From: Escherichia coli | Lineage (GTDB): Bacteria > Pseudomonadota > Gammaproteobacteria > Enterobacterales > Enterobacteriaceae | Reading direction: 5' to 3' (one strand) | DNA length: 64,000 nucleotides | Assembly: GCF_003334785.1 (NCBI RefSeq) | Contig: NZ_QOWV01000007.1 | Translations under genes and position numbers: made by a program | The notes under the pieces: model-generated | Databases searched by the model: none | What the model was told of the DNA's origin: nothing | What the model saw: the letters and a program-made list of their open reading frames with translations, nothing else | In this document: piece by piece, positions 63,648-63,903 of the stretch | Position numbering within the stretch: position 1 is the first letter of the stretch | Layout: the number at the start of each line of letters is the position of its first letter

Positions 63648-63702
63648 AGAAAAGCCCCGAGTGATATTTTACTATCAACCCGAGGCCCCCTATATGCAGA
63701 AC
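63648..63702 (-). ncRNA. sokC: SokC antisense RNA (approximate position)
   Basis: Placed by analogy with hok/sok loci, where Sok is transcribed antisense across the mok start region; I did not identify the promoter, so the boundaries are inferred. Confidence 0.4.
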
Positions 63703-63903
63703 ACATGTAGAGTGCCTCTTACTGACCGTAAGGTCAAGGAGAAGAGAGCAATGAAGCAGCATAAGGCGATGATTGTCGCCCTGATCGTCATCTGTATCAC
63801 CGCCGTAGTGGCGGCGCTGGTAACGAGAAAAGACCTCTGTGAGGTTCACATCCGAACTGGCCAGACGGAGGTTGCTGTTTTCACGGCTTACGAATCCGAG
63901 TAA
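63694..63903 (+). CDS. mokC: MokC, overlapping regulatory ORF of the hokC type I toxin
   Basis: ORF 63661..63903; Met at 63694 (MQNTCRVPLTDRKVKEKRA) reads in frame through hokC. Confidence 0.7.
   Translation: MQNTCRVPLTDRKVKEKRAMKQHKAMIVALIVICITAVVAALVTRKDLCEVHIRTGQTEVAVFTAYESE
63751..63903 (+). CDS. hokC: HokC small membrane toxin (Hok/Gef family, 50 aa)
   Basis: Translation MKQHKAMIVALIVICITAVVAALVTRKDLCEVHIRTGQTEVAVFTAYESE is the HokC/Gef sequence. Confidence 0.92.
   Translation: MKQHKAMIVALIVICITAVVAALVTRKDLCEVHIRTGQTEVAVFTAYESE

Follow-up and report, generated by a model that had tools for sequence, protein, structure and literature searches.

The window, by which we mean the whole 64,000-nt stretch of Escherichia coli DNA analysed here, ends in the chromosomal toxin-antitoxin locus hokC/mokC/sokC. 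By descent this locus is a member of the hok/sok family, but it is disrupted: its lesion lies at the 3' end, where IS186 has inserted, and not in the translational coupling elements or the Sok promoter. The locus is in an IS186-interrupted form, in which the toxin mRNA is probably open to SokC and the system silent as a killing module.

At the end of the window, nhaR (61034-61957) and nhaA (61999-63165), both on the minus strand, come first; then follow 585 nt of intergenic DNA and a plus-strand frame at 63661-63903 which, in the list of open reading frames, holds MQNTCRVPLTDRKVKEKRA and then MKQHKAMIVALIVICITAVVAALVTRKDLCEVHIRTGQTEVAVFTAYESE. A previous sequence-only reading of this DNA had described a type I toxin-antitoxin module, divergent from nhaA, with hokC intact and in frame with mokC, and all of this was borne out. 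The ATG codons of mokC (63694) and hokC (63751) are in frame, their spacing being 57 nt, and both genes end at the same stop codon (63901-63903). In RefSeq genomes that are 99.9-100% identical to this part of the window, the 153-nt hokC coding sequence is annotated as WP_000809168.1, which is the K-12 protein. MokC residues 25-66 match the Pfam family HOK_GEF (PF01848) over the complete model (positions 1-42 of 42, E 5.5e-24). For the family assignment of HokC we relied on Pfam, as the Hok-family models of NCBIfam matched only below cut-off (46.8 bits vs 73) and no HokC-specific model was among the matches. The hokC/mokC frame is real and not a chance open reading frame, the evidence for it being far beyond chance. 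The mok frame has its own Shine-Dalgarno (SD) sequence and overlaps hokC in frame; translational coupling of mokC and hokC is predicted. The second codon of mokC is CAG (Gln) in the window vs CTG (Leu) in K-12 and O157, due to a SNP at 63698. The coordinates of all elements are listed in Table 1.

Table 1. Elements of the hokC/mokC/sokC locus and the adjoining IS186 end, in window coordinates
Feature	Position	Strand	Basis or remark
Putative hokC/mokC promoter, -10 box TATAAT	63589..63594	+	Aligns with R1-type hok TATGAT; 6 nt 5' of the mRNA start
hokC mRNA 5' end with tac (translational activator) element GGGUGCUUGAGG	63601..63612	+	Start of RF01794 match; aligns with R1 5' end GGCGCUUGAGG
ucb / anti-SD box AAGCCCC	63652..63658	+	Predicted pairing with mok SD (closed) or tac (IS-interrupted folds); named after the R1 model (PMC9841398)
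mokC Shine-Dalgarno GAGG	63682..63685	+	8 nt 5' of mokC ATG; conserved with R1-type locus
mokC reading frame	63694..63903	+	69 codons, contains hokC in frame; open reading frame list, MG1655 annotation (210 nt)
sokC antisense RNA gene, 59 nt	63702->63644	-	Transferred from MG1655 sokC 16952..17010
Putative sokC promoter: -35 TTGACC (63737-63732), 17-nt spacer, weak -10 CACTCT (63714-63709)	63709..63737	-	Sequence and R1-type alignment
dcb	63715-63718	+	Predicted pairing with mok SD in the open form
hokC SD AAGGAG	63736-63741	+	Alignment with R1-type locus
hokC (gef) toxin gene	63751..63903	+	50 codons; protein identical to K-12 HokC; Pfam HOK_GEF
TACG motif at hokC Tyr47, reported A-to-I (TadA) mRNA editing position, Tyr to Cys	63889..63892	+	Identical to K-12
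Post-stop hairpin 5' half (GGCGGGG AGTGAT CC), IS186 target site	63911..63925	+	Comparison with empty site
Left copy of 10-bp target duplication GGAGTGATCC	63916-63925	+	Duplication seen in L001 and L002 (K-12)
IS186/IS421 transposase-proximal end, reaching the window edge	63926..64000	+	Identical to L001; IS421 plasmid matches

In K-12, editing of the hokC mRNA has been reported at a level of 9% (PMC12214031), and the editing-coded cysteine is reported to correspond in position to residue 46 of HokB (PMC12214031; bioRxiv 10.1101/2025.08.07.668861). Since the TACG sequence of hokC is the same as in K-12, A-to-I editing should be possible in the hokC of the window as well.

The leader upstream of the toxin frame matched the Rfam family RF01794 at 63601-63753 on the plus strand (119.8 bits, gathering score 59, E 1.5e-28). 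This match spans the full length of the model (positions 1-157) and with it the structured leader comprising tac, ucb, dcb and the Sok target. To place the elements, we aligned the window with an R1-type hok/sok locus encoding a Hok that is 100% identical to that of R1; the tac element GGGTGCTTGAGG from 63601 lines up with this locus. Likewise, the TATAAT box is the same in K-12 and O157 and corresponds to the -10 box of R1 hok as defined in PMC9841398. A generic scan for promoters and terminators missed the hokC promoter, of which the -35 is weak, as well as the sokC promoter and the native terminator; the placement of these three elements hence rests on the R1-type alignment and the K-12 annotation.

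The MG1655 annotation gives mokC at 16751-16960, hokC at 16751-16903 and sokC at 16952-17010. As the window and K-12 differ by no indels in this region, the coordinates of sokC could be transferred. Aligning the DNA with characterised hok/sok loci, which had been proposed along with the first description, placed sokC and tac. The start of the span given in that description (63648-63903) corresponds to the older sokC 3' end, which is now set at 63644. The SokC RNA is predicted to fold with -23.6 kcal/mol (z -4.69) into a structure with a terminator hairpin and a U-rich tail, and its 5' single-stranded tail is complementary to the mokC start region. The three SNPs in sokC relative to K-12 (63673, 63688 and 63698) preserve the complementarity between SokC and its target, since sense and antisense RNA come from one and the same DNA. 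The putative sokC promoter is located 7 nt 5' of the annotated sokC start, is identical in K-12 and O157, and overlaps with dcb, as has been described for R1 (PMC9841398). A cis-encoded antisense Sok gene with a putative promoter and a terminator hairpin is present in the window.

Relative to K-12 the leader differs by four SNPs (63615, 63673, 63688 and 63698), and relative to O157 by three, with one additional coding change in O157. The SNP at 63615 converts a G.U pair into A-U, the one at 63673 converts an A.C mismatch into A-U in the hairpin that also forms the SokC terminator, and the one at 63698 changes MokC Leu2 to Gln. From 63699 to 63925 the window is identical to K-12. The sequence-only reading had named mutations in the coupling elements or the Sok promoter as what would speak against the module; no damaging ones were found, and the upstream SNPs leave the regulatory elements undamaged, with predicted pairing kept or improved.

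That reading had also regarded the 97 bp between hokC and the window edge as too short to show whether an IS follows, but 75 of these 97 nt (63926-64000) are the end of IS186/IS421, an element of the IS4 family. A 23-bp terminal inverted repeat, CATAAGCGCTAACTTAAGGGTTG, occupies 63926-63948 and starts 22 nt after the hokC stop. The ATG of the transposase gene insL follows at 63981, co-directional with hokC, and only the first 20 nt of the gene are inside the window. In strain 23CRST025 (L001), which is identical to the window over 63926-64000, the complete 1339-bp IS has the matching right repeat at its far end, beyond which lie the rest of the hokC 3' region and dnaJ; its insL product, WP_001300563.1, is the same protein as in K-12. 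In addition, IS421 copies on unrelated plasmids match window positions 63924-64000 (query 725-801) at 100%. The presence of IS186 downstream of hokC in K-12, which the sequence-only reading had mentioned, could be seen in both the K-12 sequence and the MG1655 annotation. The match of K-12 to the window goes no further than the inverted repeat (to 63948), because the K-12 copy of the IS is inverted.

The empty site of O157:H7 EC4115, GGCGGGGAGTGATCCCCGCC, contains a GC-rich hairpin (GGCGGGG-AGTGAT-CCCCGCC) with a predicted energy of -18.5 kcal/mol (z -4.95), and the interrupted hairpin in the window has no significant fold (z -0.17). This means that insertion of the IS destroys the post-stop hairpin. 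The insertion base lies in the loop of a GGGG-N6-CCCC hairpin and is flanked by the 10-bp duplication, as is typical of an IS186 target. SaiSree and co-workers reportedly described a consensus target for IS186 in 2001. All three IS186 copies of K-12 are located in loops of GGGG-N6-CCCC hairpins with 10-bp duplications, namely 3' of hokC, 3' of hokE and at the terminator of nupC, the latter site being an intrinsic terminator. IS186 seems to have a preference for hairpins located at transcription-unit 3' ends.

What the insertion separates from the toxin gene can be read from IS-free loci. Directly downstream of the hairpin, O157 EC4115 has the fbi element CUUCAACGCACCC, complementary to GGGUGCUUGAGG at the 5' end, and after it the terminator hairpin; in IS-free strains fbi and the terminator lie 48-100 nt after the hokC stop. 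In L001, of which the configuration is identical to that of the window, the IS has moved fbi CUUCAACGCACCC 1339 bp further away. A contiguous 3' fbi that could provide the tac lock is absent from the window, where the sequence enters IS186 at 63926.

The predicted consequence for RNA folding was a switch in the pairing of the 5' end. In the minimum free energy (MFE) fold of the 402-nt IS-free O157 mRNA, nt 1-12 pair with 352-364 (tac/fbi) and ucb with the mok SD; in the R1-type control mRNA, 1-10 pair with 382-391. For R1, a closed, untranslatable and Sok-resistant conformer of the full-length hok mRNA has been described (PMC9841398). For IS-interrupted transcripts of 325-700 nt, with the IS in either orientation, tac paired with ucb at all eight lengths examined (as 1-8 with 52-58 in seven of the eight folds), and the mok SD paired with dcb (82-85 with 115-118) in the six that were 400-700 nt long. 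The combination of tac/ucb and mok SD/dcb is the translatable, Sok-binding open form in R1 (PMC9841398). These MFE folds are models, and a 345-nt truncated IS-free RNA adopted the metastable 5' hairpin instead of the open form. They predict a 5'-3' tac/fbi lock for the IS-free mRNA and an open structure for interrupted transcripts of up to 700 nt.

We searched the IS for 14-mers that might act as a substitute fbi, and this idea was not supported: the duplexes found were chance ones, such as one of -18.3 kcal/mol at position 4124 of L001. The duplex energy of a 14-mer has no discriminating power here, because the native fbi also scores -18.3. None of the substitute 14-mers was used in the MFE folds up to 700 nt, and the site at 4124 of L001 lies beyond 700 nt.

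Taken at face value, the intact coding sequence, 5' regulatory elements and sokC gene would allow a fully functional module, with a stable full-length mRNA, slow 3' processing and activation upon SokC decay as in IS-free loci or R1. We consider this highly improbable, given that fbi and the terminator lie 1.34 kb away beyond the IS, that the post-stop hairpin is destroyed (see the z-scores above) and that the interrupted RNA folds lack the tac/fbi lock. In agreement with this, hokC flanked by an IS is regarded as inactivated (PMC12214031), and even IS-free hokC was found to be without post-segregational killing (bioRxiv 10.1101/2025.08.07.668861).

A second way in which the lock could be retained is read-through to the native terminator, which would give a hokC-insL RNA of about 1.75 kb that closes by tac/fbi; regulation of the locus would then be retained in part, and transcription from hokC would contribute to transposase expression. 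The MFE fold of a hypothetical 1750-nt read-through transcript did keep the tac/fbi pairing and left the mok SD sequestered. Moreover, when the IS in its window orientation was scanned for terminators, no strong intrinsic one was found on the strand that is sense for hokC, whereas in the K-12 orientation this strand has a strong terminator-like site, GCCGGAAAGGGAGCTCCGGC followed by a T-run. Since the 1750-nt fold keeps tac/fbi and the scan found no strong terminator in the IS so oriented, the lock might not be wholly lost. The support for read-through is purely thermodynamic, however, and the fold ignores Rho termination and the ribosomes translating insL. The time needed to transcribe 1.3 kb would also let the 5' end refold or meet SokC or ribosomes, and we therefore regard read-through as unlikely.

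Our preferred reading of an interrupted, SokC-accessible and silent locus would work as follows. With no fbi nearby, the transcript would be unable to form the 5'-3' tac/fbi lock, which makes full-length hok mRNA stable, untranslatable and invisible to Sok. The hokC transcript would be expected to fold straight into the open conformer with tac/ucb and mok SD/dcb pairing, as the folding models suggest. SokC from the intact antisense gene would then bind the hokC mRNA and lead to its degradation, and the duplex of the two RNAs may be degraded by RNase III, by analogy with R1 hok/sok. With no reservoir of activatable toxin mRNA, the killing module would be silent while the toxin gene itself would be functional. 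The claim that activity is unreadable from the sequence consequently holds only in part: the question is partly answerable from the window, because the IS186 end is visible inside it and the form present is an IS-interrupted one without a contiguous fbi and terminator.

This silenced state agrees with the view that the K-12 loci hokA, hokC and hokE are inactivated by insertion elements (PMC12214031), and with the report that the K-12 gef mRNA is transcribed, ends inside IS186 and is regulated by an antisense RNA (PMC3562002). The hokC locus of ECOR24 is IS-free according to Pedersen & Gerdes (1999), as cited in PMC3562002. This IS-free hokC showed no post-segregational killing and no activation by rifampicin (bioRxiv 10.1101/2025.08.07.668861); because it too is without post-segregational killing, the silence of hokC may not stem from the IS alone.

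The same inactivity in post-segregational killing tests (bioRxiv 10.1101/2025.08.07.668861) would fit a decaying pseudogene remnant of which neither strand is transcribed and which is conserved through recent ancestry only, as would the fact that both promoters are weak by consensus and were missed by the generic scan. Such a remnant is hard to reconcile with the intact reading frame and leader in all three configurations (empty site and both IS orientations), or with the reported expression of both gef mRNA and antisense RNA in K-12 (PMC3562002). Furthermore, the hokC mRNA is abundant enough for its 9% A-to-I editing to be measured (PMC12214031), and HokC is toxic when overexpressed (bioRxiv 10.1101/2025.08.07.668861). 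We give a remnant very little credence.

To place the window in the population, we scored the state of the hokC site in 5,426 complete E. coli genomes, the two IS orientations being counted with queries of 2339 nt that covered the flank on either side. The site was empty in 3,815 genomes, carried the IS in the window orientation in 912 and in the K-12 orientation in 670, and was in other states in the remaining 29 (by difference). The window orientation is thus commoner than that of K-12, but these counts are database frequencies, because the genome collection is biased to laboratory and clinical strains. Counts from 120-nt junction queries (1380 and 1279) were discarded, since the paralogous hokE-IS186 junction contaminates them (83% coverage, ~90% identity). 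At least four flank haplotypes carry the IS in the window orientation, and at least two carry it as in K-12. All compared IS loci have an identical target duplication, and only 0-2 positions separate their IS copies. The flanks of SC516 (L011) and K-12 (L002) differ at 1 of 900 positions; the IS points in opposite directions in these two strains, and its 10-bp duplication is the same in both. This indicates either an independent insertion at the same base or an in-place flip; given both orientations on near-identical flanks, recurrent insertion at a hot spot is the simplest reading.

It is tempting to go further and to view the GC hairpin 3' of chromosomal hok genes as a recurrent landing pad for IS186, with many independent insertions in both orientations and on several haplotypes, where hokC transcription may enter insL and where loss of the fbi lock was selected to defuse hok loci, rather than being an accident of K-12. 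As a whole we hold this proposal to be rather doubtful. If it were true, transposase expression in the co-directional orientation would be under the hokC promoter and under SokC/RNase III control. In about 29% of complete E. coli genomes IS186 lies between hokC and its fbi and terminator, and an intact hokC reading frame should not be annotated as an intact module. The two IS orientations at a single base also offer a clean natural example of IS186 hot-spot targeting into hairpin loops, and the strains carrying them are isogenic-like material on the contribution of the fbi lock in a chromosomal hok locus.

Elsewhere, the window is collinear with K-12 from 77048 down to 16706, and its last 25 kb are 100% identical to several genomes, such as O157:H16 98-3133 and FORC_081. 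Identity to K-12 is mosaic, with 99.96% over 1-10485, 99.65% over 10390-42468 and ~98.5% from 42603, which suggests recombination breakpoints within the window. Between rpsT and nhaR the window has ~4.05 kb (56808-60858) where K-12 has IS1A instead. In and around this segment are a 373-aa open reading frame named type III effector EspX1 in RefSeq (57325-58446), a fimbrial usher of which only the C-terminal half is present (58879-60024; positions 438-826 of the 826-position profile), and an open reading frame of 319 aa (60037-60996) that is labelled 'hypothetical protein' in L001 and is a 'fimbrial family protein' pseudogene in K-12 and O157. A search of the latter frame against NCBIfam gave no match. 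The fimbrial cluster near nhaR looks degraded in the window too.

Several repeats and structured RNAs were also observed. A tandem REP-type array with an 85-bp unit between araD and araA (10220-10655) has 5.1 copies vs 3.1 in K-12 and gave Rfam naRNA4 matches. Near the caiF-caiE boundary, ~135 bp (42469-42602) stand in place of ~13 bp in K-12 (34755-34767), and a further naRNA4/REP-type match was obtained at 42509-42579. A TPP riboswitch 5' of thiBPQ (1439-1538, 65.9 bits) and an ES003 sRNA match (47755-47807, 87.4 bits) both scored above their gathering scores, and both are expected in E. coli.

Among known systems, plasmid R1 hok/sok (parB), the type I paradigm, matches the same Rfam and Pfam families as the locus in the window. 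A column-by-column alignment brings out one architecture for both loci, with tac, ucb, the mok SD and ATG, dcb (which overlaps the Sok -10), the hok SD, a post-stop GC hairpin, fbi and the terminator. In contrast to R1, the locus in the window is chromosomal and its 3' control region has been split off by the IS; between R1 Hok and HokC only the Hok/Gef domain can be aligned, and hokC of ECOR24 is reported to give no post-segregational killing (bioRxiv 10.1101/2025.08.07.668861). The hokE/sokE locus of K-12 with IS186B has the IS 21 nt after the hok stop, in the loop of GCGGGG-AGTAAT-CCCCGC and with a 10-bp duplication. Its transposase is co-directional with hok, which is the arrangement seen in the window, but hokE is another paralogue at another chromosomal site (ybdK-entD).

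The locus and its interruption by IS186 are themselves already known: they have been described since the 1990s, and hundreds of RefSeq genomes carry annotations of this configuration. IS-free loci such as that of O157:H7 EC4115 have the same genes and 5' leader (flank and locus differ from the window by 11 SNPs in 756 nt), and they keep the hairpin, fbi and terminator contiguous, together with the predicted tac/fbi closure, whereas in the window these elements are displaced by 1339 bp. Another close system is K-12 hokC (gef)/mokC/sokC with IS186A (b4412, b0018 and b4413; MG1655 15387-17010), situated at the same place between dnaJ and nhaA. The HokC protein, the hokC coding sequence and the sokC promoter are identical in K-12 and the window, as are the IS186 insertion site and the 10-bp duplication GGAGTGATCC. 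In K-12 insL is antisense to hokC, whereas it is co-directional in the window, and the leaders differ by the four SNPs described above, including the one behind MokC L2Q. The locus in the window hence differs from the K-12 reference only in the orientation of the IS and a few neutral SNPs, and like that reference it is presumably silenced.
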